Position numbers and translations under genes: made by a program. Positions 15,866 through 42,610 of a stretch of DNA of 64,000 bases are shown here, in pieces (position 1 is the first letter of the stretch; each line of letters begins with the position of its first letter). The notes beneath the pieces were generated by a model, which saw only the letters and a list, made by a program, of their open reading frames with translations, was not told the origin of the DNA and ran no database searches. The stretch spans positions 163,063-227,062 of the forward strand of contig CAZCGQ010000001.1 in assembly GCA_964498425.1 (NCBI GenBank), read 5' to 3'. The stretch comes from an uncultured Gammaproteobacteria bacterium (GTDB lineage Bacteria; Patescibacteriota; Microgenomatia; UBA12405; JAHJSD01).

Positions 15866-15867
15866 AA

Positions 15868-16599: not shown

Positions 16600-16603
16600 C
16601 TTA

Positions 16604-16630
16604 TTAGCAGTAGATTATCACGTCTGCTAA
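16604..16630 (-). promoter_or_regulatory. CIRCE-like inverted repeat (TTAGCAGTA-N9-GTCTGCTAA), putative HrcA operator
   Basis: A 9+9+9 architecture identical to CIRCE (TTAGCACTC-N9-GAGTGCTAA), with 6/9 matches in each arm. It ends 5 nt upstream of the hrcA start codon. Confidence 0.55.
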
Positions 16631-16636
16631 CAGCTG

Positions 16637-16957: not shown

Positions 16958-17024
16958 AGCTACATTTTAGCTTAGATTTTAATTCCTTCCAATAATAAAA
17001 TTTTTAGATATGATAGACTAAATC

Positions 17025-26337: not shown

Positions 26338-28467
26338 CTACAAGTCTAATTTATAGATTGTCGTGTCTCCGGAAGTAAAAATAGGTTGTCCCCAATTATA
26401 AAATCTTTCTTCGTCCAATTCCCCGTACTTTTCCTCCTCTAGCGGACCAACAAAAACATATTCGACTTCATATTTCTTGAGTAATTTTTCGGCTTCATCT
26501 AAATTTCCTTGGTAAATTGTTTTTACTTCTTCTAAACGCCTCCCCGGCCGGTCATAACCACCACGCCACAGCCACTCATGAACCGTCCAACCCTCAATCG
26601 TTGGTAAACCAGTCATTGCGGAAATCTGATTAAACATGGTGTAACTTTCACCGACCGCCTCAACAATAACTGGCTGTCCCTGAACATTCTTATTCAACCA
26701 CAAAACCGCCTCATAGTTATCCGGGTACTGTTTTTCCAGAAAATTCATCCCATATAACCCCTGATATTTCTTCAGACCGCCGTAATAACCTTTGATTGAA
26801 AAATATGGGTAAATCATATGGCTGGCAAAGCCAGCTGTAAATAGTAATAAGTAAACAGTAATAAGTAATTTATTTTTCAAAAATCCCTTAATCCGAAAGA
26901 AAATATAGCCGGCGGCAATCGAATACATCATAAATGACTGGTAGACCAATTTAAACATGGTATTTGACCGGTGATGTTCGTGAATATAAATATCTTTAAC
27001 ATAAATAATTTCAGGAATAATAATCAGAACTGTTGACCACAAAGTCATCGCCAAAACAAAAAGATCAGAAATTGTCATTCCGAGCAATGTCGAGGAATCC
27101 CTTTTGGGATTTTTAGTAACGAACAACCAAAAGCTAACTGCAGTAAACCAGAAAAACCCCCAGAGGATTAATAGTTGCCACCAAAGAGAATTAGCATCAA
27201 CAAACCGAATCCCTTCAGTCATTGGATTAAAACTAATTGCAAAGGGCATAGCAAACAAAATTGCCAAAATTAAGGTAACCACCCCAACGACGAAAGTATT
27301 TTTTAATCCCTCGACTAACTTTTTCCAATCCAGCTTGTCTATTGGTTCAAGATTGATTAAGAATATGAACAAGGCAAAAACTATTCCATAAATTGGAAAA
27401 TTCCAGGAATTGGTCATATACATAGCCGCTAATAGAAAGGCTATTAGCGGAATTTCCAATTTCCAATTTCCCCCGGCCTCGCCTCGGGCTTGCCGAGGGC
27501 GGGCAATTTTCAATACTAAACCAAAGCTTAACAAAACAGCTAAAAATAATAATACTGTCGGGATGTCATTTACATGACCGTGAAGATCGGAAACAACAAA
27601 TGAATAAGATGGAAATTCATGAATGGTTGCGTCCTTTGGGTTGTCCGGTTCATAACCAATAAACCTGGTTGCATCCGGATACCAATACTTTTTAGCCCCT
27701 CGCTTAAGAACATAGGTTATCGTATGCAAATTTCCGCCCAAGGTAAGAAGCAAGGCTGAAACCAATCCTCCAATAATAATTTTTCTTTTAAATTCCTTTG
27801 GAGCATGACTGAAACTTTTAATTTTTTTCTTAACAAGATAAATTAAATTTGAAGCCAGCGAAAAGGTGCCGCTAAAAGCCTGAGCAAAAATCGTTCCAAG
27901 CATTAAATTATAAGTTACAGCCGACCTCAATCCAGAAATTTTGGTTAAGACAGCAGCAATTAAATGACCAAAATAATAATAATTTATGGATTCGCCGGAA
28001 AACCACATATCAACGGGTGGGAACCATTTAGTTCGAAGAATTGAATTGACAAAGCCGAAGTCCATGAATTTTTCTAACCCTTCAATACGCGGAGCAAACC
28101 CTCTTATTAATGACCAAAAGGTCAACATGACTAAGAAAATTCCCTCCTGCCAAGCAAAGGTTTGCCAATTTTCCTCAAAAATATTAGTTATTTCTTTTTT
28201 ATTTTTTCCTTGACCAAGCCAATAGAGGTTTACCGCTAAAAGGATAATGATAATAAGAAAAAGTGTTTCACGATAAAAGGGAAAAATTTGGGCCCGGCCA
28301 AAAATAAAGGCAAGATATGAAATTACTAAAAAGGAAACTGTTTTAGCAAAAATCCAACCTTTATCCCAAAATTTTCCAAAAATTTTGAAAACCAAAGGAA
28401 GAGCCAGTGCTCCCAAAATTACAGTTATCAGCCACCAATAAAAGATTGTAAAAACATCGGTAATCAT
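26338..28467 (-). CDS. Large polytopic membrane protein, YYY/DUF2298-family putative GT-C glycosyltransferase
   Basis: Over 12 TM segments. The FMDFGFVNSIL...FPPVDMWFSGESINYYYFGH motif matches the chlor_Arch_YYY (DUF2298) family. Large C-terminal extracytoplasmic domain. Confidence 0.6.
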   Translation of the reverse strand: MITDVFTIFYWWLITVILGALALPLVFKIFGKFWDKGWIFAKTVSFLVISYLAFIFGRAQIFPFYRETLFLIIIILLAVNLYWLGQGKNKKEITNIFEENWQTFAWQEGIFLVMLTFWSLIRGFAPRIEGLEKFMDFGFVNSILRTKWFPPVDMWFSGESINYYYFGHLIAAVLTKISGLRSAVTYNLMLGTIFAQAFSGTFSLASNLIYLVKKKIKSFSHAPKEFKRKIIIGGLVSALLLTLGGNLHTITYVLKRGAKKYWYPDATRFIGYEPDNPKDATIHEFPSYSFVVSDLHGHVNDIPTVLLFLAVLLSFGLVLKIARPRQARGEAGGNWKLEIPLIAFLLAAMYMTNSWNFPIYGIVFALFIFLINLEPIDKLDWKKLVEGLKNTFVVGVVTLILAILFAMPFAISFNPMTEGIRFVDANSLWWQLLILWGFFWFTAVSFWLFVTKNPKRDSSTLLGMTISDLFVLAMTLWSTVLIIIPEIIYVKDIYIHEHHRSNTMFKLVYQSFMMYSIAAGYIFFRIKGFLKNKLLITVYLLLFTAGFASHMIYPYFSIKGYYGGLKKYQGLYGMNFLEKQYPDNYEAVLWLNKNVQGQPVIVEAVGESYTMFNQISAMTGLPTIEGWTVHEWLWRGGYDRPGRRLEEVKTIYQGNLDEAEKLLKKYEVEYVFVGPLEEEKYGELDEERFYNWGQPIFTSGDTTIYKLDL

Positions 28468-28503
28468 CTGGCGACATTTTACAATGATGTATAATTTAAT
28501 TCA

Positions 28504-29040
28504 ATGTCAAATAGTACTTTAAAAGTTGGTTTTGACCTGGATGGGGTCATCATTGATAAACCCTTTTTTGTCCCGAAATCAATCATTGAATATCTCTATC
28601 GCGCTCACAACGGCAATCATAAAAAATATCGCGTCCCAACTTGGCAGCCAGAAATTATTTTACGGAAACTTAGTCACCATTGGGCCTTAAGACTTCCTTT
28701 GAAAAGAAACTTATTACAGATCAAAAAAATTGCACAAAACCCAAACATTGACGCCTATATTATCTCCGGCCGCTACAACTTTTTAAAAAATCGAACAAAG
28801 CAGTGGTTCAAAATTCATAAATTAAGCGGTAAATTTAAAAAGGTATGCATTAACATGAAAAATGAGCAACCGCATATTTTTAAAGAAAGAATGATCAAAA
28901 AACTCCAACTTGACTACTTTTTTGACGATGACCCACTATCTTACAATTATTTGAAAAACAAGATTAAATCGACTAAGTTTTATTTAGTTAAAGGCAACGA
29001 TGAAGAAAATTTTAATCTCCCTAACTTACTATCTGCCTAA
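28504..29040 (+). CDS. HAD-superfamily hydrolase (nucleotidase-like)
   Basis: FDLDGVIID is motif I (DxDGV). Small cap-less HAD architecture. Confidence 0.5.
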   Translation: MSNSTLKVGFDLDGVIIDKPFFVPKSIIEYLYRAHNGNHKKYRVPTWQPEIILRKLSHHWALRLPLKRNLLQIKKIAQNPNIDAYIISGRYNFLKNRTKQWFKIHKLSGKFKKVCINMKNEQPHIFKERMIKKLQLDYFFDDDPLSYNYLKNKIKSTKFYLVKGNDEENFNLPNLLSA

Positions 29041-30136
29041 TATCAGCGGGGTAACAATTTACGCAGACATCCTTGCCCGCAAACTCGCCGAGAAAAACAA
29101 AGTAACACTTTTGACATCGAAATTTAAATCTGACCTCCCTACTCAAGAAGAGAAAAACGGTATGTTTATTAGACGAGTATGGGCACCAATAAAAATAAGT
29201 AAAGGAATTATCATGCCTTTTTTCCCAATCATTTCCCTTGTACAAGCGATTAAAAACGATACTATCATTTGCCACCTGCCGCAGCTTGAAGCTGTCTGGC
29301 TGATGCTTTGGGGAAAGCTACTCGGGAAAAAAACTATTATTGTTCACCATTGCGAATTCGGCGACGCTCCCGGGCTAGGTAAAAAGATTATTAAATACTT
29401 AACCTACATCCCACATTATCTTGCTTATCTTCTCGCTGATCAAATTATTGCCTATACCCAAGACTATGCCCAACACTCAATTTTTCTATCCAAATTTAAA
29501 AATAAAATAGACTACATTCTTCCGCCGGTAATTCTAGAACCCGAAAATAAATCAAAGGTTGAAAAACTCAAATCTAAATACAAAATCAGTAAAAAAACCA
29601 AAGTAATTGGTTTTGTTGGACGAATCGGTTGGGAAAAGGGAATTGACCTCATTCTTAACTCTATCCCCAAACTTAAAAAGGATTTTAAAAAACTAAAAGT
29701 TATCTTTGTTGGCCCGTACCAACACGTTGTCGGCGATAAAACCTTCCTCAAATTAAAAAATCAATTTAACAAATATGAAGATAATGTAATTCTTACCGGC
29801 CGGGTTGATCACTCAAAACTAGTTAACTATTACCATTTATTTGACTGTTTGGTCTTACCAAGCACAAATAATCTTGAAACCTTTGGTATTGTTCAGCCAG
29901 AAGCAATGATCTGCGGCTGTCCAGTTGTTGCCAGTAATCTTCCCGGTGTTCGCGTTCCAGTTATAAAAACTGGCATGGGTAAAATTATTCCTGTCGGCAG
30001 TCAAAAAGAACTCGCTGAAGCAATCTCCTACTGCCTCAAAAACCAAACTAAGCTTTCTGCTAAACAATCCTCTGCCCAAAAACTTTTTTCAATTAGCAAG
30101 TTTTTTGATAAATGGATAAATTTAATAAGCCCATAA
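29000..30136 (+). CDS. Glycosyltransferase family 4 (GT-B, group 1 glycosyl transferase)
   Basis: The GRIGWEKGIDLIL...E-x7-E region is typical of GT4 retaining transferases. Confidence 0.8.
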   Translation: MKKILISLTYYLPNISGVTIYADILARKLAEKNKVTLLTSKFKSDLPTQEEKNGMFIRRVWAPIKISKGIIMPFFPIISLVQAIKNDTIICHLPQLEAVWLMLWGKLLGKKTIIVHHCEFGDAPGLGKKIIKYLTYIPHYLAYLLADQIIAYTQDYAQHSIFLSKFKNKIDYILPPVILEPENKSKVEKLKSKYKISKKTKVIGFVGRIGWEKGIDLILNSIPKLKKDFKKLKVIFVGPYQHVVGDKTFLKLKNQFNKYEDNVILTGRVDHSKLVNYYHLFDCLVLPSTNNLETFGIVQPEAMICGCPVVASNLPGVRVPVIKTGMGKIIPVGSQKELAEAISYCLKNQTKLSAKQSSAQKLFSISKFFDKWINLISP

Positions 30137-31620
30137 GTTGGTTTAAAAAAATACCCCTATCTACCTACATTTTAACCTCTCTTATTGTTTTTTTTATTAT
30201 TGTTAATGTAGTGACAATTAATCACTGGTATTTTTCAGTTATTGGAGATGAATATAGCTTTTATATATTTGCCAAAAATTTCAATTTGTTAAAGTTAAAC
30301 TTATTTAGTCAGTCCGGAGTATACGGTAATCATCCTGTTTTAAGTTCGGTCTATCAAGCTTTAGTAATGAAAATTTTAGGGGACAGTAATTTTGCCTGGC
30401 GGTTTAGTTCCCTTCTTATAGTACCATTATCTATCCCCGGATTATATTTAATCGGAAAGGAACTATTTAATAAAAATGTTGGCTTATTTTCCGCAATCAT
30501 TTTTTCTTCCTCTTTTTATCTTTTTGGATATGCTCATACAGGATATAACAATATTCAAGCTTTGTTTCCGTTTATCTATGGAGTTTATATGGCAATCAAG
30601 GGGTATAAGAAAAACGCAACTATTTATTACGTATTATCTGGTTTTTTCTGCGCGTTGGGATGGTACACTTTCTACACCTCAAGAATAACAATATTATTAG
30701 TCTCAATAATTTTTGCTCTCAAACTAATAAAAAAGAATAATAGAAGTGAGAATATTAAGAATTTTGCCTTTTTACTTATTGTTTTTTTTCTGATAACTAC
30801 ACCGCTGATAATCACTAACAAGGAAGAAGTAATTACCAAGATGCTTGACCAATCAATTTTAAACCGAGAATATTATGGAACTTTCATAGATAATCCCACT
30901 AAACGCTTTCTTATTAACTTCAAAAAAAACTTCTTTTCATTCATACTCGGAAATGATTTGAAACACTTCGTTTCGGCCCCAATACTTGATCCCATTTCAA
31001 AAATATTAGCACTTATCGGATTATCGATAGCCATTAAGAATATTCGCAAATTAAAATATTCATTACTTCTGATATTTTATGTTTTACTAACAATTATGGT
31101 TTCATTTAATCCTTTAAACGAAATCGCTATTTCCAGGATACATTTGAATTTATCAATATTAACCATTTTCGGCGGTATCGGTTGGCACTTTACTAATAAG
31201 CTTATATCAAAAAAATCTGGTCAGACTTACTCTGTTATTCTCGCCTTGTCCATTTTAATTCTGAATATTTATACATTCTATTATGAAATTCCACGTAAAT
31301 TTCCCTTAAATAAAGAGGCATTAATTATTAAGGCAGCACAAACTTCTTCCATTCCACTTATTATTCACGAGGGACAAAATGAAAACAAAACTTTTCGAAA
31401 GATTATTGAAGCCTACGATTTCAAACAGGATGTTTTCTTTTTAAATTCACAAACAAAACAAATTAACCTACCAAAAACAACATTCCTCTACGTAAGTAAT
31501 GACAAGAAAACAAATAAAATGGATATTAATCTTTTGAAAAGCTGCCACAAAGCGAATTCAGTTAGATTTTTCGCACCAAACAAAAATATATGGCTAGAAG
31601 CCTTAAAATGTAAAAAATAA
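30112..31620 (+). CDS. GT-C fold membrane glycosyltransferase (PMT_2/ArnT-like)
   Basis: About 11 TM helices, with an SVIGDEYSFY DE motif in the first extracytoplasmic loop. Confidence 0.55.
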   Translation: MDKFNKPISWFKKIPLSTYILTSLIVFFIIVNVVTINHWYFSVIGDEYSFYIFAKNFNLLKLNLFSQSGVYGNHPVLSSVYQALVMKILGDSNFAWRFSSLLIVPLSIPGLYLIGKELFNKNVGLFSAIIFSSSFYLFGYAHTGYNNIQALFPFIYGVYMAIKGYKKNATIYYVLSGFFCALGWYTFYTSRITILLVSIIFALKLIKKNNRSENIKNFAFLLIVFFLITTPLIITNKEEVITKMLDQSILNREYYGTFIDNPTKRFLINFKKNFFSFILGNDLKHFVSAPILDPISKILALIGLSIAIKNIRKLKYSLLLIFYVLLTIMVSFNPLNEIAISRIHLNLSILTIFGGIGWHFTNKLISKKSGQTYSVILALSILILNIYTFYYEIPRKFPLNKEALIIKAAQTSSIPLIIHEGQNENKTFRKIIEAYDFKQDVFFLNSQTKQINLPKTTFLYVSNDKKTNKMDINLLKSCHKANSVRFFAPNKNIWLEALKCKK

Positions 31621-31621
31621 A

Positions 31622-33229
31622 CTACCGCTTCTCAAAAATGATCACCTTGGGATGGTCGTATACGGTGAAGGCTTCTTCGGATGGATCATCGTTTAGCTCA
31701 ATGCCAAAAAAACTAGGATAGGAGGTTATTTCGGCTACTTCTTTAAACGTCCCTTGTCCTGAAGGAGGACTAAGTTCACCAGCAAACAATTGCTGATAAA
31801 ATCTTGTTGTTCGAGGATAGCGTTCGGGAACAGTAGGAATTGAGCCGTAGAGTCGACTTGAGGAAAGGATAATATAGTCAATTTTTTCTAACTGCTGATT
31901 CATCTTCTGCCATTTACGATCAGTATCTGCCCCAAAAAGTTCAAGGGTTAACTGCTCATATCGAGAAGAATTTTTACCGTTAAGGGGCAACGGCAAACAG
32001 TCGTCCCAATGCTCACAGGAAATGGTTGATCCTGCCGGAATGTTTTCATAAATCCACTTTGATGCCTTAACACGGCTGTGCGGTTGAGAATAGATTGCCA
32101 TAAACATTAGCGGATAAATAAATAAATTCGAAATGATAATCGCCTTACTTTTTTTTGACCGACTAGCTAACCAACCACCAGCAATAAGGGCCATAAAGGG
32201 ATAAACTGGTAGGAAATATCTCATATTTTTTGAAAACTGAACCCCCTGGAAAATAAATAACATAAAAATCCAAATCAAATAAACTATCATGTTGTCATTC
32301 TGGAGCCATTTTAATGGCTGAAGAATCCCCGGGGGTTCCTTCGTCATACTCAGGATGACGCTAAAAATAGCAATAATTGTTACTATCCCCAGGGGAACGC
32401 CAAGCCCCCAGAAGAAAATATTTTTGGCTGGAAAAATCAAAGGTTTAGTTTTAATCCACTGTATCCCTGGAGGATAGCCGGTATCTTTGCCTCCAAAACT
32501 GTTTAATTCCTTGATGTCGGCAATAAACTCCGGGTTTGGTTGAAACAGGCCGACGAAGGAATAAGGGTTGAAGATGCGTGCAGTAGCACTAGTAATAAGT
32601 AATAAGTAAACAGTAAACAGTAGTAATTTTTTAAAATTTCCTGAATATCTTTTGAGAAAAACCAAACCGATGATTGGTAAAAACAATACAGCGGTGATTT
32701 TGCATGACAAAGCCATACCCATAAACAAGCCGACGAATAAGGGTGATAGGTTTAAAGCGGCGTAAAAGGAGAGAACTAAAAAGAAGTTTAAAAAGGGATC
32801 AACGGCAAAGAAGTGGGAAAGCTGAATTGGAAGAACCATTAATGAGTAAAGTAAACTTGGCCAAACTTTTTTGGAAATTAAATACAACAGAATTATTACC
32901 CCGCCGTCAGCAAGAGCAGCTAAAACCCGGCCGACTAAATTAAAATGAGCATAGTCGTGGAAGCCGAAAATTTGACTAACTGCCTTAGTTAAAAAAATCG
33001 GCAGTGGGCCGTAAACAAAAAAACCGAAATCGTTATTGCGTGGGTTTAACGGAGATTTTCTAGTATTAAAATATTCGCCAATATTTTCCGGCCAATCGAT
33101 TGCCGTTCCAACCATCGTTAAAAAACGTTCATCGGGATGAAGGTGATGACCCTGATCCCAATTTAAACCGTATATTCTCAGACTTAAACCAATTGCTAAA
33201 ATCAAAACCAAAAGCAATTTCTTTCGCAT
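31622..33229 (-). CDS. GT-C fold membrane glycosyltransferase (paralog 1; N-terminal WxxxHxHPDE motif)
   Basis: N-terminus LNWDQGHHLHPDERF. Polytopic. Shares a TM segment (KKLLLFTVYLLLIT) with the YYY protein and is a paralog of 34027..35556. Confidence 0.55.
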   Translation of the reverse strand: MRKKLLLVLILAIGLSLRIYGLNWDQGHHLHPDERFLTMVGTAIDWPENIGEYFNTRKSPLNPRNNDFGFFVYGPLPIFLTKAVSQIFGFHDYAHFNLVGRVLAALADGGVIILLYLISKKVWPSLLYSLMVLPIQLSHFFAVDPFLNFFLVLSFYAALNLSPLFVGLFMGMALSCKITAVLFLPIIGLVFLKRYSGNFKKLLLFTVYLLLITSATARIFNPYSFVGLFQPNPEFIADIKELNSFGGKDTGYPPGIQWIKTKPLIFPAKNIFFWGLGVPLGIVTIIAIFSVILSMTKEPPGILQPLKWLQNDNMIVYLIWIFMLFIFQGVQFSKNMRYFLPVYPFMALIAGGWLASRSKKSKAIIISNLFIYPLMFMAIYSQPHSRVKASKWIYENIPAGSTISCEHWDDCLPLPLNGKNSSRYEQLTLELFGADTDRKWQKMNQQLEKIDYIILSSSRLYGSIPTVPERYPRTTRFYQQLFAGELSPPSGQGTFKEVAEITSYPSFFGIELNDDPSEEAFTVYDHPKVIIFEKR

Positions 33230-33370
33230 AGCTTAATTTTAGCAAAATCTTAAGCACTAATTCCTAAACTCTAAATAATACCCAATTATCAAAGCCCAAA
33301 TATTTAAACTAATCCGGACATTTTTATTTTGAATTTGTTTAGGATTTAGATATTAGAGATTAGAATTTGA

Positions 33371-33394
33371 TTCTAGAATATCGATATTCTAGAA
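33371..33394. promoter_or_regulatory. 24-bp perfect palindrome TTCTAGAATATCGATATTCTAGAA
   Basis: Read directly from the sequence. Ends 6 nt before the UDG ATG at 33401. Confidence 0.5.
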
Positions 33395-33400
33395 TGTCTC

Positions 33401-34030
33401 ATGACCGTTCAAGAAGAAATCGACAGTCTGGCTGAAAAAATCAGTAAGTGTCAAAAATGTCCTCTCTATAAGTCCGCCACTCAGGCGGTTCCCGGTGGGC
33501 CTAATCCTGACACAGATATTGTCTTTATTGGCGAAGCTCCCGGTTACTGGGAAGATCAACGCGGTGTTCCCTTCTGCGGTCGTTCCGGCGACTTGCTCAA
33601 CAAATTACTTCAGAGAATTAATCTCGATCGAAAGGATGTTTTTATTTGTAATATTTTAAAACACCGGCCGCCAAATAATCGTGACCCAAGCCCGGAAGAA
33701 ATTGAAACTTGCACTCCCTGGTTAAAACAACAGCTGTTAATTATCGAACCCAAAATTGTCATCACCCTTGGGCGATTTGCCATGAATTATTTTATCCCCG
33801 ATGTCTACATTTCTAAAGTTCACGGTCAGCCTAAACAAATCCTTTGGCAAGATTTGGATTTACTCCTTTATCCCCTTTATCATCCAGCGGCTGGGTTAAG
33901 AAACGGGAGCGTTAAGGAGGATTTAGTTGAAGATTTTTTGAAAATTCCCAAGATTATCAGTGATGAGAGTGACATGGATATGAAGATAAAAGAGGAGAAA
34001 AAAGACCCCGAACAGGAAAGTTTATTTTAG
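33401..34030 (+). CDS. Uracil-DNA glycosylase, family 4 (Fe-S UDG)
   Basis: CQKCPLYKSATQAVPGGPNPDTDIVFIGEAPGYWEDQRGVPFCGRSG, HPAA and the conserved Cys residues. Confidence 0.85.
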   Translation: MTVQEEIDSLAEKISKCQKCPLYKSATQAVPGGPNPDTDIVFIGEAPGYWEDQRGVPFCGRSGDLLNKLLQRINLDRKDVFICNILKHRPPNNRDPSPEEIETCTPWLKQQLLIIEPKIVITLGRFAMNYFIPDVYISKVHGQPKQILWQDLDLLLYPLYHPAAGLRNGSVKEDLVEDFLKIPKIISDESDMDMKIKEEKKDPEQESLF

Positions 34031-35556
34031 AATTTTTTCCACAATCGAAGGGTGGGGTGGTCAAAAACTGTCCAGGTTTCTTCGGAATTAAGGTCACTAC
34101 CCAATAAAAATCGGCCAACCGGCCCAAAGGGACGAAACGTCCGCATTTTGCTAAAGCCTAAATCACCGGAAAACAAATCTTGGTAGAAACCTGCTGTTAT
34201 TGGATACCCTTTTGGTAAACGCAAATGGTTAGTAAACATCCGCCGCGACGGAGAAAGGAAATAATCCGCCTGATTAATTGCAGATGATAATTTTTCTTGT
34301 TGGTCTTCTTCTAAATCAAGGTGGTAAAAATCGATATTAATTGTTTCGAATTTGTCATGATTAAGCTCCGGCAGGTCAATTATATTACCACCTTCATAGA
34401 CTATTGTTGAACTTTCAGGCAAATTTTCATTAATCCATTGACAGGCTTGGATGCGGATATCCGGTTGAAAGTAAATTTTCATAAATAATATGCCGGGGAG
34501 AATTAAAATGAATATAGCAACTAGTAATTGGTAACCGGTAATTGATAATTTCTTAAGAGAAAAAACAATGAATAAAACTAGGAAAGGAAGAATCGGGGTG
34601 ATAAACCTAGTCCATTTGGCAAACAATAATGAATTGAAAATAAACCAAGGGAGAAATGTAGAAGCTAGAAGATAGAAATTAGAATTTAGAATTTTGAATT
34701 TCCTTTTTTTGAATACGTAACTCGTAATCCGTAACCCACTAATCCCCAAACCCACTATTAAAAAAGTGAACATTGGGAGACCAAGCACCCAAGGTAAGAC
34801 TTTCTTAAACTGAAATAAAAAGGGCTGAGTATTAATAAACTGCCTCATGTAAAAAACCCGGGTAAGTCCCCGAGCCAAATTGGATTCATATCTAAATGTC
34901 CCCCAAAAATCCTGAAACTCTATTAGGTAGTAAGGTGAAAAGAATAAAGTTAAAATAGTCAACGAAATACCCCAAGGAATAAGTCGGCGAAAACGTTTTG
35001 GTTTAATAACAATTGCTAAAAATGGACCAAGTAAAAACAAGATAGCGTTCAGTTTACTAGCCATGCCGATTGCCGCAATTAATGAAGAAAGAATTAAATA
35101 TCTAATCTTTTCAGTGTCATAATACTTAACCGCTAAATAAGCTAAGGATATTCCGACGAAGGTCAGCAGGCTCTCTGTCGTCCCAAAATGGGCCATTTGA
35201 ATTAACCCAGGTGTAAAAATTAATAATAAACTAGTTATCATTGCCCATTTCTGGTTTTTAAATATATTTTTAGCTAGTAAATAACCAACGATAACTGTTA
35301 AAACTGAAAAAATAGCTGACCAAAAACGCAAATGTAAATGCGAGGAAACCTTAACCAACTGCTTAGTTAGAAAGGACAGATATAATGGAAATTGACCGTA
35401 GGCAAAAAAATCTGGGTCAAAATTATCCCAGGAAAGTCGATCAACCGCCCAAGCCATATTATTTTCGTCAGGATGAAAATGAAAACCCCCGCCCCAATTA
35501 ATCCCCCATAACCGAGTTAAAAGTAGTCCAATAATAAGAAGTAACTTAAAGAACAT
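34027..35556 (-). CDS. GT-C fold membrane glycosyltransferase (paralog 2)
   Basis: N-terminus WGINWGGGFHFHPDENN. Polytopic. Paralog of 31622..33229. Confidence 0.55.
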   Translation of the reverse strand: MFFKLLLIIGLLLTRLWGINWGGGFHFHPDENNMAWAVDRLSWDNFDPDFFAYGQFPLYLSFLTKQLVKVSSHLHLRFWSAIFSVLTVIVGYLLAKNIFKNQKWAMITSLLLIFTPGLIQMAHFGTTESLLTFVGISLAYLAVKYYDTEKIRYLILSSLIAAIGMASKLNAILFLLGPFLAIVIKPKRFRRLIPWGISLTILTLFFSPYYLIEFQDFWGTFRYESNLARGLTRVFYMRQFINTQPFLFQFKKVLPWVLGLPMFTFLIVGLGISGLRITSYVFKKRKFKILNSNFYLLASTFLPWFIFNSLLFAKWTRFITPILPFLVLFIVFSLKKLSITGYQLLVAIFILILPGILFMKIYFQPDIRIQACQWINENLPESSTIVYEGGNIIDLPELNHDKFETINIDFYHLDLEEDQQEKLSSAINQADYFLSPSRRMFTNHLRLPKGYPITAGFYQDLFSGDLGFSKMRTFRPFGPVGRFLLGSDLNSEETWTVFDHPTLRLWKKF

Positions 35557-36472
35557 AAATTATTACAATAAGCATGAACCCCCAGATAAAAACGGTGACC
35601 AGTAAAGGAATATCCGAGGCTAGAATTTTTCCTGGTCGCTCACCTCTTTTTCTTTCCAAAACTAACTGAGAATAACGCATAATTCCTAAAATTACTGGAA
35701 AAATGGTAAGCATCAGCCACTTTCTTCCAATTAAAAAAGGGAAATTATTAACAAAAAAATCATGAATTTTGGGCTGGCTAAAATCAGCCGGTTGGGCCAA
35801 ATATGTAAATAGGGAATAGGATATCAAAGTTAAAACAGAAAAAATTGATACGTAAAAATTCAACAAGGCTTTTTGATATTTCCCCAAAGTTGGTCTTGTT
35901 TTACTCCCCTCTTTAACAAATTCGCTTCTTCGCTTACCACTAGCGATAAAGAGTGAAAGAAAAACTACGGTGAACATTAACCAAACTGGCAGATGAAAGC
36001 CAGTAGCAATTTCCCCTCCCAGTGCTCGTAAAATAAATGAAAATGAAATCCCAAAAATATCCAAAATTGCAATTTTCTTGAGAATAAAGCTGTAAATTAA
36101 ATGAAGGATTAAGAAAGCAATAATTAACAATACAAAACTAAAACTTAGGTAGAAAGCAATTGAAAGTCCCAAACTAAATAGAAAAATTGACCAAATTATT
36201 GCCTGCTGAGGTGTCACCGTACCTTTAGCTATTGGTCGATTTCTTTTTTGAGGATGACGACGATCATAAGGCGCATCAACAATATCATTAATTAAATATG
36301 AACCGGAAGAAAACAATGAAAATACTACAAAGGCAAGTAAAGATTCAACAACTACCTCCCCATTAAATAACTGACCGTTAAAAATCATCGCTGCAAAAAC
36401 GGCCAAGTTTTTTGTCCACTGATATGGACGCATTGAGACTACTAAGCCACGAATGGTCTTGACAGAAATCAT
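35546..36472 (-). CDS. UbiA-family prenyltransferase (polyprenyl-phosphate phosphoribosyl/glycosyl transferase-like)
   Basis: YLINDIVDAPYDRRH is the UbiA NDxxDxxxD motif. Eight to nine TM helices. Confidence 0.7.
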   Translation of the reverse strand: MISVKTIRGLVVSMRPYQWTKNLAVFAAMIFNGQLFNGEVVVESLLAFVVFSLFSSGSYLINDIVDAPYDRRHPQKRNRPIAKGTVTPQQAIIWSIFLFSLGLSIAFYLSFSFVLLIIAFLILHLIYSFILKKIAILDIFGISFSFILRALGGEIATGFHLPVWLMFTVVFLSLFIASGKRRSEFVKEGSKTRPTLGKYQKALLNFYVSIFSVLTLISYSLFTYLAQPADFSQPKIHDFFVNNFPFLIGRKWLMLTIFPVILGIMRYSQLVLERKRGERPGKILASDIPLLVTVFIWGFMLIVIIYVL

Positions 36473-36515
36473 CTTCTACATTTTAACCAAGAAACAGCAA
36501 GGAAACAAGGGCGGC

Positions 36516-37790
36516 CTAAATTTTTGAAGCTACTTCTTTACCGAGCTTTATTGAATAATTTACTCCCCTATCCCATGGAAAAATATGGTTTGCCGTGGCC
36601 CAGAAAAGCTGATCCGAAATTAAGGATATCTTCGGCTTTATCCCAGAATAACCTATTGGAATTATTGGCTGAGCATCAGAATATTTAAACAACTGATAAT
36701 CAATTAAATAATTCTCAAATGACGGGTTTAACCGCCTCAAATAAGGAGAAAATTCCTCTAAGACTTTTTCCTTGTCTTTTCTTAGGGTTGAATTTTCTTG
36801 GGGGTAATATCCACCAATATAAACAATATTTTCACCTCCATATTTATTAGCATCAACAAAATTTGTTTGCTCAACAATAACCAAAAATGGAAATTCCTTT
36901 TCTAAAACATTAAGCCAATAACTGTCTCCCGGAAGAAACTTTTTTTCTAATCTCATCACTAAAGCCATCGCTCCATTGGTTTTTAACTCTCGCCAACTTG
37001 AAACATTCTTATCGCGAAGCTCTTTCCAGGTTTGGATTAATTTTAAAGCTTGGGACAAAGGAATGGCAATTATTACTTTGTCAGCATTAAATTCTTTTTT
37101 TTCGGCAGACAAAATCCATTTATTTTCATTTTTTTTAATGCTAGTAATACGTGTCTGGAGATGTATTTTGTTTTCTTTCTTAATTTCCTCTCTCAACCTG
37201 TCAATTAAAACTGCTGTTCCTCCTTCAAAATAACCTAACCGCGCACTTCTTTTTTTTAACCTAGCCCATAACCAGGAAAAGGCAACTTCGTCTGTGTACT
37301 GGTGAAACTTATTCTCCATCAACGGCTGCCAAATTTTTTGCCAAGCCGATTGTCCAATTAGGCTCAAAAATAAACTCTTTGCTGAAAAGCGGTCATAAAA
37401 TGGTAAATAGGGCAAAAGCCTTAAAAGAAAAATAACACTGCCCATTCTCAGCTTATTAAAAGTAGATAAGTTCGGATATTTCATAATATCTAAAGGCTCA
37501 TCAAATGGATGGATATTTCCCTCAGAATACACTGAAGTTTGTACTTTCTTGAAAAATAACTTGTCTTCCAGCCCTAGTTCAGCGGATAAATTCTTAACAT
37601 ATTTGTCAGAAGTAAAATAATGATGAAAATATTTTTCCAACGGCCAATCCCATTTCTTTTCTTTATAACTACCCGCTAGGCCTCCAAGTGATTCCTCTGC
37701 TTCAAATAACTCAACTTCCTTCCCTTCTTTAGCTAAAGAATAAGCAGCTGTTAACCCGGTTATGCCTCCACCAATAACTGCAATCTTCAT
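36516..37790 (-). CDS. FAD-dependent oxidoreductase (amine-oxidase/UDP-galactopyranose-mutase-like fold)
   Basis: MKIAVIGGGITGLTAAYSL is a GxGxxG dinucleotide fold. LGGLAGSY...YFHHYFTSDKYV resembles the Glf/amine-oxidase family. Confidence 0.55.
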   Translation of the reverse strand: MKIAVIGGGITGLTAAYSLAKEGKEVELFEAEESLGGLAGSYKEKKWDWPLEKYFHHYFTSDKYVKNLSAELGLEDKLFFKKVQTSVYSEGNIHPFDEPLDIMKYPNLSTFNKLRMGSVIFLLRLLPYLPFYDRFSAKSLFLSLIGQSAWQKIWQPLMENKFHQYTDEVAFSWLWARLKKRSARLGYFEGGTAVLIDRLREEIKKENKIHLQTRITSIKKNENKWILSAEKKEFNADKVIIAIPLSQALKLIQTWKELRDKNVSSWRELKTNGAMALVMRLEKKFLPGDSYWLNVLEKEFPFLVIVEQTNFVDANKYGGENIVYIGGYYPQENSTLRKDKEKVLEEFSPYLRRLNPSFENYLIDYQLFKYSDAQPIIPIGYSGIKPKISLISDQLFWATANHIFPWDRGVNYSIKLGKEVASKI

Positions 37791-37797
37791 CTTGCCA

Positions 37798-38559
37798 TTA
37801 TAACCAAATTAACAAGCCGCTTAAAGTAATGATTGAGCCAACAATTATCATAATTTGTACTGGGAAATTTACACCCGCTTCAGGCAATTCTGCCGTAGTC
37901 GGAGATGGACCTAAGGCAATAGCCTCAGTCGGTTCGCTGGTTGGTGGCTGAGTTGAAACCTGGGTAGGAGTACTGGTTAAAACACTAGTTGGAGAACTAG
38001 TCGGATTATTTGTTGGGGTTATCGTTGGTGTCTCGGTTGGCGTATCCGTTGGAGCTGTTGTCCCGGTCGGAGTTATCGTTGGGGTCTCAGTCGGCGTATC
38101 TGTCGGAACCTCCGTCCCGGTTGGGGTTGTCGTTGGTGTCTCGGTTGGGGTCTCAGTCGGCGTATCTGTTGGAACCTCCGTCCCGGTTGGAGTTATCGTT
38201 GGTGTCTCAGTCGGCGTTTCTGTCGGAACCTCCGTCCCGGTTGGAGTTATTGTTGGTGTCTCAGTCGGCGTTTCCGTTGGAGTTAAAGTTGGAATGGTAA
38301 ACTCCAAACGGCAAGATGGAATATCTCTAGTTGTCTCCTCAAACACCGCTGGTACTTTTTTAGGAGCTGTTGGTGCAATCGGTTCCTGTCTCAACTGATA
38401 AAGTTTGATTGCACTTAAAATTGCAATTACCGCTAAAACAATTGTTGAGCCAATCAAGGCATATAACTTCCATCTTGGACCCGCTTGATTATCTTTTAAA
38501 CCGGATTCTAATTTTGGTACTTCATTTTCTTCAATCATTTCCAACCAAACTGAGGACAA
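37798..38559 (-). CDS. Thr/Pro-repeat surface protein (TETPTITPTGTEVPTDTP tandem repeats) with N- and C-terminal hydrophobic anchors
   Basis: Direct nucleotide and protein tandem repeats. The C-terminal tail is ELPEAG followed by a TM helix. Confidence 0.6.
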   Translation of the reverse strand: MSSVWLEMIEENEVPKLESGLKDNQAGPRWKLYALIGSTIVLAVIAILSAIKLYQLRQEPIAPTAPKKVPAVFEETTRDIPSCRLEFTIPTLTPTETPTETPTITPTGTEVPTETPTETPTITPTGTEVPTDTPTETPTETPTTTPTGTEVPTDTPTETPTITPTGTTAPTDTPTETPTITPTNNPTSSPTSVLTSTPTQVSTQPPTSEPTEAIALGPSPTTAELPEAGVNFPVQIMIIVGSIITLSGLLIWL

Positions 38560-39644
38560 ACCTCAGCCTCAACAACGTAATTAGTAAATTCATCAAACTC
38601 ATCATAAAGAAGATAAAAACCATACTCGTTGGACTGCTCCGTTTCTATCCACGTTCCATCGTTAACTTTAAATCTGGCTTTAGCCATTCCATCCGGATGA
38701 TTAGTCTCTCCGTTAGCAACTAGATAAACCTCCTGATCATAAACCAACAAAGGCTCGACTAACAAGCCCGATTGATCAACAATTGGCGTCCAGTCTTTAT
38801 CATAAATTGCTGCTTGGGTACATCGACAGTCATAAGTAGGCGTATTTGTCGGGGTAGGGGTAGGTGACGGAGTTAAGGTCGGAGTAATTGTCGGCGTTAA
38901 GGTTGCAGTCGGAGTTGGGGTCATTGTAGGCGTAGCTGTTGATGTTGGAGTCGCAGTTGGACTTGGCTGACATTCTTCCCAATCTTGACCATCTTCCCAC
39001 GTACAATTCCAAACATGCTGACCATCAACTAACACATCTTGTTGAGTATTTCTACATCTGTATGTTCCATCCCAATATGGAGCATTAGGATAATCCTCGG
39101 CTTGCGGATCATATCCAGGTCCTTTTTCATAACATTCTGTCCAGCACTCATCTTCACTCGGCTTCCCTTCGCAGCAATGACAGGGCAAGTCACAACTATC
39201 CCCGCCAGAACAATCATCACATTTTTGACAATTACCGTTGGTTTTTGTACCTCGACAAATATCTAAAGACCTTGCGCTGGCACTACAATCATCATTACAG
39301 TCATATTCCGCCTTACGGCCACTGCAATCAAATTCACAATCCTGGCTGGGATTACAATCACTACCCCCTGGACAATTTTCAGAGGGATTCTGACAACGAC
39401 CTAAGGTAGAACAAAAAGTCAAACCAGACATACAAGTACCGCAGCAATTGGGATTATCATTACACGAATTTTGATCACATTTGCCTTCGTGCCAACCACC
39501 ACAAGGACAAGACTCAGCAATATCTCCATGCGTCGCCCCACGTCTAGTTTCTTGCCCCTGCCTGACAAGATAAATACCAGCCCCTAGAGAAGAAATCAAT
39601 AATAAACCAACAGCAATAAGCCAATATATTTTGGAAGTTCTCAT
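38535..39644 (-). CDS. Cysteine-rich (~40 Cys) secreted/anchored protein with a TP-rich linker and a C-terminal globular domain
   Basis: N-terminal TM or signal, CxC/CC-dense region, a PTPT linker, and a C-terminal domain YDCRCTQ...EVCPQFGWK. Confidence 0.6.
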   Translation of the reverse strand: MRTSKIYWLIAVGLLLISSLGAGIYLVRQGQETRRGATHGDIAESCPCGGWHEGKCDQNSCNDNPNCCGTCMSGLTFCSTLGRCQNPSENCPGGSDCNPSQDCEFDCSGRKAEYDCNDDCSASARSLDICRGTKTNGNCQKCDDCSGGDSCDLPCHCCEGKPSEDECWTECYEKGPGYDPQAEDYPNAPYWDGTYRCRNTQQDVLVDGQHVWNCTWEDGQDWEECQPSPTATPTSTATPTMTPTPTATLTPTITPTLTPSPTPTPTNTPTYDCRCTQAAIYDKDWTPIVDQSGLLVEPLLVYDQEVYLVANGETNHPDGMAKARFKVNDGTWIETEQSNEYGFYLLYDEFDEFTNYVVEAEVCPQFGWK

Positions 39645-39647
39645 TGC

Positions 39648-41027
39648 CTAAATTAAAACTAAGCTAAAGAATAAAATTGCCGCACCACCAAACAAAATAA
39701 TTGTCGGTCCAAAGAAACCACTTTCTGGAACGCCAGATTCGGTTGACGGTTGACTTTTACGGGGGGGGGTTGTTGGCTCGGTAGTGGAAGTTGGTTCAGC
39801 CGTAGCCGTCGGGGTTGGAGCTTCGGTTGGGGTATTCGTTGGATTTATAGTTGGAGTTGCCGTTGACCCAGAGGGGGTAGCACTAAACGCTGGACCACCT
39901 TCACCCGTTTGTGCTGCCAAAACAAAAGTTCTTACAAAGGTTTCAACTCCCCCTGTATCCGGGTTGGTATATTCTACTGTTAACGTATGGGCTCCGGGTG
40001 TTAAGTTTTGTGGAGGGGCCCACTGCCACTCTCCATTAGAATCAATTTCAATTTCCGATTCGTAAGTAACTGGAGACTCCAAAGTAATCTCAACCTTTGC
40101 CCCTTTTGGGCCCTCTCCAAATATTTCTGGCTTTGGAATGGTTATTGTTTCACCATCGTTGGGGTTAATTATCTTAAACTCTTTTTCTTGGCCCAAATTT
40201 AAATTTCCAGTATCCAATTTTGAATCCATAGCCGGAGAAGGAGTAAGGTCGTTGTTCAATAAATTCTGATCCCCACTAGTAAAATCTTGACTTTCCCCTA
40301 AAATAATCGGAGGAACCGGGTCATCATTTTGAGTATAAATCGTAGCTGTTGCTCTTCCCCGCTGACCAGTTACCGCCAAAATATTTTCAATAATTTTTCC
40401 TTCTTCATAATTAGCTCTCATCGATAAATCCTCTGAATAAGCTTGGGCTAAAGGCACAACCCAATTACCCTTGTTGGTGACTAAGGCGGATAATTTGCTT
40501 ATCCCCGGAATATCTAAATATACAATCGCCCCAGCAGCTGGTTGACTACTGCCGTTTAGAACTGAGCCAGAAGCTAAATTTGCTTCTGGAGGTATACCTG
40601 ACGTCGACAAAGCGGTTTTAACCGAATAAGCTTTTAGCCTTTCTTCAAAAAACTCTTTACCACCCGAGTTTAGATAAAATTTATATTCAGTGTCCGGGGA
40701 CAAATTGTTAATAACCACATAATGGGTATCATAATCACCCAACGTGCCCGGACTATCTCGAAAATCAGTAACCACTTTTCCATCTAAGCTTTCAACTTGA
40801 ACAAAGCCCTTTGTTTTTTCACCAGTTATCCAAGAGACTGTAAAAGAATTGCTGGTAATATTAGTTATCTCTACTTCCTGCGGAGTTATCCCCTTACTGG
40901 CTCTGGTTAAAAAAGAAGTGCCTTCTCGAAGAAGGGTTAGACTGCCTACCAGGCCTAAAACTAAGAAAATACCAAGAATAGTTGGGATCTTTTTCTCACT
41001 CATCAAGTTCACCTGATTCGGTTGCAT
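39648..41027 (-). CDS. FN3-domain surface protein with N-terminal anchor and C-terminal PESG + TM tail
   Basis: ITSNSFTVSWITGEKTKGFVQVE...DTEYKFYL is a fibronectin type III signature. The C-terminus is TP-rich and ends VPESGFFGPTIILFGGAAILFFSLVLI. Confidence 0.55.
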   Translation of the reverse strand: MQPNQVNLMSEKKIPTILGIFLVLGLVGSLTLLREGTSFLTRASKGITPQEVEITNITSNSFTVSWITGEKTKGFVQVESLDGKVVTDFRDSPGTLGDYDTHYVVINNLSPDTEYKFYLNSGGKEFFEERLKAYSVKTALSTSGIPPEANLASGSVLNGSSQPAAGAIVYLDIPGISKLSALVTNKGNWVVPLAQAYSEDLSMRANYEEGKIIENILAVTGQRGRATATIYTQNDDPVPPIILGESQDFTSGDQNLLNNDLTPSPAMDSKLDTGNLNLGQEKEFKIINPNDGETITIPKPEIFGEGPKGAKVEITLESPVTYESEIEIDSNGEWQWAPPQNLTPGAHTLTVEYTNPDTGGVETFVRTFVLAAQTGEGGPAFSATPSGSTATPTINPTNTPTEAPTPTATAEPTSTTEPTTPPRKSQPSTESGVPESGFFGPTIILFGGAAILFFSLVLI

Positions 41028-42560: not shown

Positions 42561-42610
42561 TAGTTCAGTATATTAAACTACACTATTGGTGTCAAAGCGG
42601 AAATTAATTT

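Follow-up and report, generated by a model that had tools for sequence, protein, structure and literature searches.

Introduction

The closest known systems to the glycosylation locus described here are the mycobacterial decaprenylphosphoryl-arabinose (DPA) pathway, which includes Rv3806c, Rv3807c, DprE1/DprE2 and the Emb and Aft enzymes, and the three-component pentofuranose systems, of which that of Citrobacter youngae O1/O2 comprises ORF15, a polyprenyl-phosphate phosphoribosyltransferase with a phosphoribose phosphatase (PPPRS-PRP), ORF14, a small transporter, and ORF12, a glycosyltransferase of the C fold (GT-C) in family GT136 (Kelly et al. 2024, PMC11127046). The locus lies in a 64-kb stretch of contig CAZCGQ010000001.1, hereafter called the window, and its nine genes at 26338-37790 are YYY (DUF2298), C2, C1, UbiA and a flavoprotein gene on the minus strand, and a haloacid dehalogenase (HAD)-like gene, GT4, C3 and a uracil-DNA glycosylase (UDG) gene on the plus strand. 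The first enzyme and the overall logic are common to the locus and both of these systems; it differs from them in its GT-C families, in that neither DprE1/DprE2 nor a small transporter was found, and in an added orphan flavoprotein. In our estimate there is about an even chance that the locus is the version, in the candidate phyla radiation (CPR), of extracytoplasmic glycosylation through a polyprenyl-phosphate-pentofuranose that depends on phosphoribosyl pyrophosphate (PRPP). An initial annotation had proposed that GT-C enzymes form the core of a locus for lipid-linked glycans; every gene that it named was found again in its place, and its core idea is supported by the GT-C folds and by the assignment of the UbiA protein. 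A literature search found no description of a glycosylation locus of this kind in CPR bacteria.

The likeness to the mycobacterial DPA pathway extends from the same UbiA phosphoribosyltransferase, with its catalytic and PRPP-contact residues, to a PAP2 phosphatase in most relatives of the locus, several clustered GT-C genes, a wall-gene context and structural matches to AftA and Emb. It differs in that the GT-C enzymes here are of DUF2298 and GT39-like families, that a HAD-like protein replaces PAP2 and that the host is a CPR bacterium. Domains of DprE1 (FAD_binding_4/ALO) and DprE2 (SDR) were found in none of the main open reading frames (ORFs; about 125 aa or longer) across the window, and therefore the sugar is more likely to be ribofuranose, unless the flavoprotein, a member of PRK07233, acts on it. 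The FAD_binding_4 fold of DprE1 is unrelated to the amine-oxidase fold of this flavoprotein.

The Citrobacter system follows the same logic of PRPP and polyprenyl phosphate, a phosphatase and then an extracytoplasmic GT-C, and its ORF12 has acidic residues just after the first transmembrane helix (TM1), D31 and E34, as does C1, D30 and E31 (PMC11127046). Whereas the HAD phosphatase is fused to the PPPRS in Citrobacter, the HAD-like protein is encoded here by a separate gene, and its fusions are with GT4. The small EmrE/ArnE-like transporter, with four transmembrane helices, has no recognised counterpart in the window, where the syntenic MurJ scores as MurJ proper, and in place of a single GT-C of family GT136 there are two to four GT-Cs, whose likeness to GT136 is at fold level only. 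The pilin of Pseudomonas aeruginosa Pa5196, a Ser/Thr protein target, is O-arabinosylated using PRPP-derived donor chemistry (PMC11127046); PilN/PilO-like genes adjoin the locus here, but the array is without a pilin gene.

The protein O-mannosyltransferases (PMTs) of family GT39, namely yeast Pmt1-Pmt2 and Pmt4 and actinobacterial Pmt, have a DE dipeptide in loop 1 in common with C1, the C1/C2 pair recalls the Pmt1-Pmt2 heterodimer, and the candidate acceptors here are likewise Pro/Thr-rich extracytoplasmic stretches. However, C1 is without a MIR domain and has another, alpha/beta, C-terminal domain, it shares very little sequence identity with Pmt2 (21 bits), and the coupled donor gene encodes a phosphoribosyltransferase, not a GT2 polyprenyl-phosphate-mannose synthase; no gene for the latter (GT2, DPM1-like) was found in the conserved locus. 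Pairs of TIGR03662 and TIGR03663 proteins occur in Archaea and Chloroflexi, and YYY is a true TIGR03662 member accompanied by PMT-like partners with the DE motif. These pairs differ from the present case in that neither C1 nor C2 comes near the TIGR03663 cutoff, that archaeal Agl23 is linked to hexose-phosphate-dolichol and flipping, and that the locus here has a PPPRS, PAP2/HAD phosphatases and proteins with sortase signals.

The UbiA phosphoribosyltransferase and its conserved neighbourhood

The UbiA protein scores 209.4 bits against NF008978 (decaprenyl-phosphate phosphoribosyltransferase), above the cutoff of 207, and 193.9 bits against NF008977, below the cutoff of 234, while the models for heme O synthase, UbiA, MenA and similar enzymes give 58 bits or less. 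The structure of Rv3806c (PDB 8j8j) is matched with an E-value of 4e-34, and the next UbiA-family structure with 1e-4. When the 8j8j alignment was read against the Rv3806c structure paper (PMC10994848), 10 of the 13 functionally tested residues were found to be kept (R22, K28, Y70, N73, D77, K87, R90, Y138, K143, and K191), as were D74 and D81 of the NDxxDxxxD motif; the substitutions are Q135 to H, Y157 to F, which is also seen in mycobacteria, and K208 to P. In Rv3806c, R22, K87, and R90 contact the pyrophosphate, N73 and D77 are Mg ligands, and K28 and Y70 contact the 5′-phosphate, K28 also binding the decaprenyl-phosphate lipid; the phosphoribose-binding sites set this enzyme apart from other UbiA enzymes (PMC10994848). 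PRPP can be argued to be the substrate because the kept residues form these Rv3806c-specific sites, and the protein is, judging from its sequence, an enzyme of the decaprenyl-phosphate 5-phosphoribosyltransferase (DPPRS) type, orthologous in kind to Rv3806c. The suggestion of the initial annotation that a UbiA-type enzyme makes a polyprenyl-phosphate sugar donor, as in actinobacteria, is supported by the NF008978 score and the 8j8j alignment. A literature search combining Patescibacteria with DPPRS found nothing relevant.

Conservation of the neighbourhood was examined by a scan with the C1 alignment, using one genome per GTDB species, which gave 382 relatives; the best 80 loci were examined together with five from other routes. 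Loci that extend far enough are called complete (60 in number), and PAP2, HAD and UbiA were tallied by domain-level detection. In about 80 species-level genomes of Shapirobacteria and Microgenomates a gene order is shared: MurJ, PilN-like, PilO-like, a small transmembrane protein, an fn3/Big_13 protein, (Pro/Thr-rich proteins), (flavoprotein), UbiA, C1, C2, (C3/GT4/HAD), (PAP2), YYY, UvrD, and FemAB. Among 82 loci, 74 have UbiA, in each case as the gene directly upstream of C1, and 71 have C2, which lies downstream of C1; YYY is present in all 60 of the loci extending far enough. MurJ is kept in conserved synteny in 57-60 loci, and is probably the lipid II flippase, which may also flip a lipid-linked donor. 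The PilN-like and PilO-like genes, whose Pfam matches are clearer in relatives than in the window, are found in 60-64 loci. As an observation on the flank, the UvrD helicase of one related locus (L084, 15362-17359) carries an intein with Hint/Intein_splicing domains.

The reading frames of C1 and UbiA have 11 nt in common in the window, and the two genes are predicted to be translationally coupled. The intergenic gaps from PilN (42560) to C1 (34027) are 43 nt or less, and the 50-nt gap upstream of PilN holds a promoter-like site that is a consensus match only (Table 1). This arrangement suggests a putative 10-gene operon reaching from PilN to C1.

The GT-C enzymes

The presence of four GT-C genes within about 9 kb, as the initial annotation had it, is upheld by Pfam and NCBIfam matches, by the paralogy of C1 and C2, and by Foldseek searches with AlphaFold2 (AF2) models of C1 and YYY; profile and fold searches alike led to GT-C enzymes, not to unrelated transporter families. 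C1 and YYY are GT-C enzymes by fold, C2 by paralogy and C3 by its PMT_2 score of 57 bits. The Pfam gathering cutoffs are 22.7 bits for PMT (PF02366) and 26.1 bits for PMT_2 (PF13231), of which C1 exceeds both and C3 the latter. C2 has no Pfam match; it is a full-length paralog of C1 by blastp (26% identity over 538 aa, E 4e-44). The N-terminal motif previously noticed in C1 and C2 is real, but its first residue is W or Y, so that it reads [WY]G[IL]NWxxGxHxHPDE. All 40 members of a C1-family alignment have W21, P29, D30, and E31, and C2 keeps all invariant residues of the family.

As single sequences, C1 and YYY had no match in a PDB sequence search, and a profile of the C1 family matched yeast Pmt2 as its sole PDB entry (E 0.001; 21 bits). 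The AF2 model of C1 has a predicted local distance difference test (pLDDT) of 90.7 and a predicted TM-score (pTM) of 0.91. All 44 of its Foldseek matches with E-values of 0.1 or less have the GT-C fold, almost all of them being glycosyltransferases with a probability of about 1.0, and they include ALG9, STT3, ArnT, AglB, PglB, Pmt4, DPY19, Emb, and AftA/B/D. The side of the membrane on which the acidic motif lies was assessed from the AF2 helices and loop charge counts. The K/R-rich loops at 99-102, 184-191, 283-291, and 335-336 are all on one side, and the loop after TM1 (17-71, with H28-P29-D30-E31) and the C-terminal alpha/beta domain are on the other. The HPDE motif is placed outside the cytoplasm because it lies opposite all four K/R-rich loops, a layout that in the model is the canonical GT-C arrangement with an extracytoplasmic DE dipeptide. 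The best NCBIfam match of C1 is TIGR03663 (Agl23) with 40.8 bits, a match confined to the N-terminal 180 residues and short of the cutoff of 126.25; C2 has no match to this model. In an hhalign comparison C3 matches the C1 family with a probability of 60% (E 8.5e-5). Its G+C content is 0.296, against 0.39 for the window. Only a minority of the related loci have C3, and its orientation differs among them; this accessory transferase was probably gained recently or evolves fast.

YYY contains the motif INYYYFGH, confirmed here within ESINYYYFGH, and N162, Y163, Y164, F166, and G167 are invariant in the family. Its NCBIfam score lies well within TIGR03662 (Table 1). In a Foldseek search with its AF2 model (pLDDT 85, with low confidence in the hyper-conserved loop 257-301), all 14 matches with E-values of 1e-5 or less were GT-C proteins, namely STT3, AglB and AftA (8if8), and the rest were noise; the highest TM-score, 0.56, is that to AftA. 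A profile of the YYY family had no sequence match in the PDB, and DUF2298 is without a solved relative at the sequence level. No sequence homology is detectable between DUF2298 and the C1 family (hhalign probability 12%), and the two share the fold only. The most conserved stretches of DUF2298, at YYY residues 257-301 and 620-639, read YWYPDATRFIGY...HEFP...DLHGH and GWxVHEWLWRGGYD, and both were modelled by AF2 at pLDDT below 50-60. By analogy, they recall two features of oligosaccharyltransferases, the catalytic loop EL5, which is flexible, and the WWDYG region, which is rich in Trp. DUF2298 also occurs fused to PAP2 in proteins of about 900 aa (P0183, P0184, P0206, and one in locus L074 at 14310-17192), and this fusion links the two families in the manner of a Rosetta stone. 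Literature searches on DUF2298 and TIGR03662/TIGR03663 found nothing relevant.

Phosphatases and the flavoprotein

The HAD call of the initial annotation is supported only by motifs and by weak superfamily matches among orthologs; the window copy itself has no Pfam match. All 15 orthologs compared have D11, D13, G14, R90, K127, and D142, and 13 of them weakly match HAD-superfamily models (LNS2, 5-nucleotidase, Acid_phosphat_B, and HAD_PNKP; best E 6e-5), and profile matches in the PDB, which are weak, are to PNKP and 5′(3′)-deoxyribonucleotidase phosphatases. The reading frame overlaps that of GT4 by 41 nt; the GT4 call (Glycos_transf_1, 117 bits) holds, and GT4 is found in 28 of the 60 complete loci. 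An exhaustive phmmer search with the HAD-like protein gave 143 representatives, about 12 of them proteins of about 550 aa with the HAD-like domain at the N-terminus. Among 10 longer matches scanned with Pfam, nine were HAD-GT4 fusions, two of these truncated, and none was a HAD-UbiA fusion. The fusion proteins of about 550 aa include P0376, P0377, P0379, P0402, P0411, P0421, and P0446, and the fusion is also present in two of the examined loci (L015, 8348-10009; L062, 15969-17645). Because of these fusions and the 41-nt overlap, the HAD-like domain is at least as tied to GT4 as to UbiA, and the simple reading of it as a PRP domain in the style of the UbiA-fused Citrobacter ORF15 is weakened. 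The fusion suggests a two-step synthase/phosphatase enzyme. The pairing resembles the logic of sucrose-phosphate or glucosylglycerol-phosphate synthase/phosphatase.

In most relatives a PAP2 gene lies immediately upstream of YYY; in the window, phmmer with the PAP2 proteins of two relatives found none. Among the 53 complete loci with UbiA, 44 have PAP2 (one as a fusion) and the other nine all have the HAD-like domain, so that none is without either, and PAP2 is absent from all seven complete loci that lack UbiA. On a neighbour-joining tree of YYY at least 3-4 switches between PAP2 and HAD are counted, and the HAD and flavoprotein loci are mostly in one clade. In mycobacteria the partner of the PPPRS is the PAP2-type Rv3807c, whereas the phosphoribose phosphatase of Citrobacter ORF15 and of a P. 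syringae homolog is of the HAD type (PMC11127046); the PAP2/HAD exchange parallels these two phosphatase types.

The flavoprotein is a full-length member of NF005560/PRK07233 (396 bits, cutoff 252), a family annotated "hypothetical protein". Its closest characterised relatives are HpnE, protoporphyrinogen oxidase (PPOX) and phytoene desaturases, and its best PDB matches are to PPOX and phytoene desaturase. The likeness to Glf proposed in the initial annotation was rejected: there is no match to the GLF domain (PF03275), and matches to UDP-galactopyranose mutase structures cover only the N-terminal Rossmann part (residues 3-79) with E-values of about 0.008. Of the 60 complete loci, 48 have UbiA only, five, the window included, have both UbiA and the flavoprotein, seven have the flavoprotein only, and none has neither. 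PAP2 is found in none of the 12 loci with the flavoprotein and in 44 of the 48 without it. In L083-L085 the flavoprotein lies directly upstream of the GT-C and DUF2298 genes, with no UbiA within 8-10 kb; its presence beside these genes in UbiA-less loci therefore ties it to the GT-C/YYY core rather than to UbiA. As a matter of speculation, its step could be an oxidation of the lipid-linked pentose, as by DprE1 with another fold, or a CrtI-like reaction on the polyprenyl carrier. A literature search on PRK07233 found nothing relevant.

Candidate acceptors

Three genes between PilO and the flavoprotein, adjoining the flavoprotein/UbiA pair, encode the proteins with the top three Pro plus Thr fractions (over 30 residues) in the window: 0.77 for 38535-39644, 0.73 for 37798-38559, and 0.67 for 39648-41027. 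The last of these ends in a Pro/Thr tract, VPESG and then a hydrophobic helix, and its orthologs, present in 64-68 loci, have (V/I)PxTG or (V/I)PxSG tails followed by a hydrophobic helix. Among the orthologs of the 253-aa protein, 31 of 35 distinct tails are of the LPxAG kind, and the Pro/Thr tracts are kept in orthologs. These tails with their helix are like the wall-anchoring signals of sortase substrates; no sortase gene was found in the 64-kb window. The part of the 253-aa gene at 38018-38294 is a DNA tandem repeat with periods of 54-66 and 120 nt and 79-87% matches, and it encodes the TPTETPTITPTGTEVP units of the protein. The same repeat units give spurious terminator-like hairpins on the plus strand.

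By analogy, Pro/Thr-rich stalks beside PMT-like GT-Cs would be natural targets of O-glycosylation. Actinobacterial and yeast PMTs are precedents for such O-glycosylation, and so is the O-arabinosylated pilin of P. aeruginosa, for which the donor chemistry is the same. With regard to the S-layer or protein glycosylation suggested in the initial annotation, these Pro/Thr-rich proteins would be specific candidate acceptors, with a wall polysaccharide as the alternative. In streptococci, GT-C enzymes O-glycosylate Ser/Thr-rich disordered regions (PMC11092751).

Other features of the window

All features are collected in Table 1. MurJ and the WecA-like transferase, which the initial annotation had listed beside a fifth GT-C and a GT2 gene, hold with 220 and 74 bits, respectively, whereas the GT-C and GT2 calls are sub-threshold. 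The WecA-like protein gives 71 bits against TIGR02380 (WecA) and 36 bits against MraY, both below the cutoffs. The protein encoded at 46103-47527 was considered as a C1-family member and rejected as such (hhalign probability 3%), and it stays a probable GT-C on its sub-threshold PMT_2 score; that encoded at 47548-49047 has no PDB or NCBIfam match. The four co-directional genes of this second block are separated by 20, -1 and -1 nt. In relatives the block does not accompany the main locus, and it fits the general theme of lipid-linked glycans. The UDG call (family 4) also holds; this gene is present in eight loci, confined to the closest relatives of the window, and is a lineage-specific interloper.

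Table 1. Coordinates, strands and supporting evidence of the features in the window
Feature	Position	Strand	Evidence and remarks
YYY, DUF2298/TIGR03662 Chlor_Arch_YYY, 709 aa	26338-28467	-	Pfam 339 bits; NCBIfam 495 bits (cutoff 300.25)
Putative HAD-like small phosphatase, 178 aa	28504-29040	+	DxDG...SGR...K...DDD motifs; divergent
GT4 (GT-B, Leloir), cytoplasmic	29000-30136	+	Glycos_transf_1 117.5 bits; no NCBIfam equivalog reached
C3, PMT_2-type GT-C, 502 aa	30112-31620	+	PMT_2 57 bits; ArnT-like 31 bits
C2, GT-C paralog of C1, 535 aa	31622-33229	-	Paralogy to C1; motif YGLNWDQGHHLHPDE
UDG, family-4 uracil-DNA glycosylase	33401-34030	+	Pfam
C1, GT39/PMT-like GT-C, 509 aa	34027-35556	-	PMT_2 55.7 bits; PMT 38.4 bits; motif WGINWGGGFHFHPDE
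UbiA, polyprenyl-phosphate 5-phosphoribosyltransferase (PPPRS/DPPRS-like), 308 aa	35546-36472	-	UbiA 95 bits; NF008978 209.4 bits
FAD-dependent amine-oxidase/PPOX/CrtI-like oxidoreductase, 424 aa	36516-37790	-	NF005560 396 bits; Amino_oxidase 106 bits
Pro/Thr-repeat membrane-anchored protein, 253 aa	37798-38559	-	LPEAG and hydrophobic helix at end; candidate acceptor
Secreted/anchored Cys-rich protein with Pro/Thr tract, 369 aa	38535-39644	-	Candidate acceptor
fn3/Big_13 surface protein, 459 aa	39648-41027	-	Pfam fn3, Pur_ac_phosph_N, Big_13; candidate acceptor
Small bitopic membrane protein, 128 aa	40996-41382	-	In 64 loci after iteration
PilO-like bitopic protein	41348-42016	-	Weak Pfam PilO, E 4e-4
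PilN-like bitopic protein, head of co-directional array	41979-42560	-	Weak Pfam PilN, E 1e-4
Sigma-70-like promoter match, TTGACA-17-TATACT	42567-42595	-	11/12 consensus matches; top of 67 sites in region
MurJ, MOP-superfamily lipid flippase	42611-44263	-	Pfam 219.7 bits; TIGR01695 234.2 (cutoff 235.55)
Probable GT-C	46103-47527	+	PMT_2 24.7 bits (cutoff 26.1)
Membrane GT2-like protein	47548-49047	+	Glycos_transf_2 E 0.076; IVIPNYDE, CDAD, QRHAW motifs by eye
125-aa membrane protein	49047-49424	+	Three hydrophobic segments by inspection; no family match
WecA-like polyprenyl-phosphate sugar-phosphate transferase	49424-50470	+	Glycos_transf_4 (PF00953) 74 bits

The rest of the window, with 39% G+C, is of a housekeeping nature (IF-2, NusA, UvrABC, DnaK/J, GrpE, HrcA, Obg, MetRS, and S20). 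Relatives of the encoded proteins carry the names Candidatus Shapirobacteria, Microgenomates or Patescibacteria, and the host is a Shapirobacteria-like CPR bacterium. Many contigs of clearly Patescibacteria-like metagenome-assembled genomes (among L003-L082), from one bulk submission, are titled "uncultured Gammaproteobacteria bacterium", and these titles look like a systematic mislabel in the public record. A low-GC stretch (0.34-0.36 at 52-56 kb) has a short ORF with a resolvase N-terminal domain (51798-52145) and an AbiEii-like AAA_21/AAA_15 ATPase (53265-54620), and 51798-54620 may be a small mobile or defence islet. A metal-related cluster at 58360-62129 contains two CbiA/ParA-like ATPases, one of them with 4Fe-4S domains, a cation-efflux protein fused to a Nitro_FeMo-Co domain (dinitrogenase cofactor-binding-like), a stand-alone Nitro_FeMo-Co protein and a DUF134 protein.

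Proposed pathway and alternative explanations

In the proposed pathway, UbiA would move 5-phosphoribose from PRPP onto polyprenyl phosphate at the cytoplasmic face, and a phosphatase, HAD-like here and PAP2 in most relatives, would strip the 5-phosphate to leave polyprenyl-phosphate-ribofuranose. The donor would then be flipped and used by the GT-C enzymes at the outer face, where C1 and C2, possibly as a Pmt1/Pmt2-like pair, and perhaps YYY as well, would transfer the pentofuranose onto the Pro/Thr-rich stalks or onto a wall glycan. GT4 (with HAD), the low-GC C3 and the PRK07233 flavoprotein would be accessories that vary between lineages and lend variety to the product. Domain scans of the ORFs found no genes for nucleotide-sugar synthesis anywhere in the 64-kb window; a PRPP-derived donor does without a nucleotide-sugar pathway and would thus suit a reduced genome.

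Several points weigh against this pathway. The donor sugar, the lipid and the acceptor are all ones that we infer, and neither a small flippase of the SMR/GtrA type nor an epimerase of the DprE1/DprE2 type was found in the window. The C1 family resembles GT39, whose known enzymes use polyprenyl-phosphate-mannose. C1, C2 and YYY are kept in seven complete loci that show no UbiA within 10 kb on either side, and therefore the GT-Cs may not depend on the UbiA product, unless UbiA is elsewhere in the genome; the flavoprotein persists where UbiA is absent, and the HAD-like domain is found in four of the UbiA-less loci. This domain is repeatedly fused to GT4 and not to UbiA, and its substrate may be the product of GT4. 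The position of PAP2 beside DUF2298, or fused to it, equally fits the recycling of polyprenyl diphosphate after an en-bloc transfer like that of oligosaccharyltransferases. The co-occurrence counts are phylogenetically non-independent, the loci being related, the topology of C1 follows from the positive-inside rule applied to an AF2 model, and the calls of a fifth GT-C and a GT2 are sub-threshold.

Such an en-bloc transfer would give the genes different roles, in which the WecA-like enzyme starts a diphosphate-linked oligosaccharide, GT4 extends it, the MOP protein flips it and YYY transfers it to protein or wall, with PAP2 recycling the polyprenyl diphosphate and UbiA with C1/C2 adding pentofuranose branches afterwards. 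The best structural matches of YYY are catalytic subunits of oligosaccharyltransferases, PAP2 is the immediate upstream neighbour of YYY or its fusion partner, the WecA-like, GT4 and MurJ/MOP genes are all in the window, and the Citrobacter system pentofuranosylates after polymerisation (PMC11127046). However, PAP2 is found in 44 of the 53 loci with UbiA and in none of the seven without it, which fits a phosphatase of decaprenylphosphoryl-5-phosphoribose at least as well, the WecA-like module is non-syntenic in relatives, and the top TM-score of YYY (0.56) is with AftA, which uses a polyprenyl-monophosphate-arabinose; we regard this alternative as unlikely, if worth keeping in mind. Of similarly low probability, yet to be taken seriously, is that the product is a wall polysaccharide, a pentofuranan on lipid or peptidoglycan comparable to arabinogalactan or a secondary wall polymer, with the Pro/Thr proteins as mere neighbours. 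MurJ and FemAB are in the window, LytR_cpsA_psr (an LCP ligase) lies beside DUF2298 in L084 and L085, multiple GT-C paralogs with a PPPRS make up the layout of mycobacterial arabinan synthesis, and Emb, AftA, AftB and AftD are among the structural matches. On the other hand, by sequence C1 is closest to protein O-mannosyltransferases, the Pro/Thr proteins are co-directional and tightly packed with the flavoprotein, UbiA and C1, in a position kept in at least 60 loci, and carbohydrate-binding modules like those of Emb and AftD were not detected.

C1 and C2 could also be helpers of the flippase type, like Agl23 (TIGR03663) of Haloarcula hispanica, which would leave only YYY and C3 as catalysts. 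TIGR03662 and TIGR03663 co-occur in genomes, just as YYY stands with C1/C2 in this locus, and the "flippase activity-associated protein Agl23" model is the best NCBIfam match of C1 (40.8 bits), yet this score is far below the cutoff of 126, and C1 shows the hallmarks of catalytic GT-Cs: the full GT-C architecture, an invariant DE dipeptide in its first outer loop, and a C-terminal domain outside the cytoplasm. Reportedly, the purified Agl23 protein moves lipid-linked Man5GlcNAc2 (M5GN2) across the membrane of liposomes and makes good a yeast rft1 deletion, which speaks for a helper role (PMC11182771); even so, we consider such a role for C1 and C2 very improbable. The idea that unrelated membrane proteins or transporters have come together here by chance, without a common pathway, deserves hardly any credence. 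The unrelated UDG inside the locus and the weak HAD, fifth GT-C and GT2 calls could be read in its favour, but the GT-C profiles and folds, a gene order kept in about 80 species-level genomes, the overlapping coding regions and the PAP2-DUF2298 and HAD-GT4 fusions stand against it, and chance clustering is refuted as far as synteny and fold evidence can refute it.

A bolder proposal, which we put forward as rather improbable, sees in the locus a glycosylation machine specific to CPR bacteria and assigns DUF2298/YYY as an STT3/AftA-like transferase that uses a PPPRS-derived polyprenyl-phosphate-pentofuranose on sortase-anchored Pro/Thr stalks, and the PRK07233 flavoprotein as a new donor or carrier enzyme, either a DprE1-like oxidase with another fold or a CrtI-like saturase that gives a dolichol-like carrier. 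If it were true, a role of PRK07233 beside or instead of UbiA/PAP2 would explain the mutual exclusion of flavoprotein and PAP2, and a first function would be given to two orphan families, DUF2298/YYY and PRK07233.

Implications

CPR/Patescibacteria live attached to other cells, and to our knowledge almost nothing is known experimentally about their cell envelopes. The conserved putative operon described here links a PRPP-based lipid-sugar synthase with GT-C enzymes, including DUF2298/YYY, and with wall-anchored Pro/Thr-rich proteins. PRPP-dependent pentofuranose glycosylation, if it is what the locus performs, would provide a testable model for surface decoration in reduced genomes without nucleotide-sugar pathways, and would add another superphylum, and further GT-C families, to the recently defined systems of pentofuranose glycosylation. 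Moreover, PRK07233 and the HAD-GT4 module are flagged as candidates for new lipid-linked sugar chemistry.

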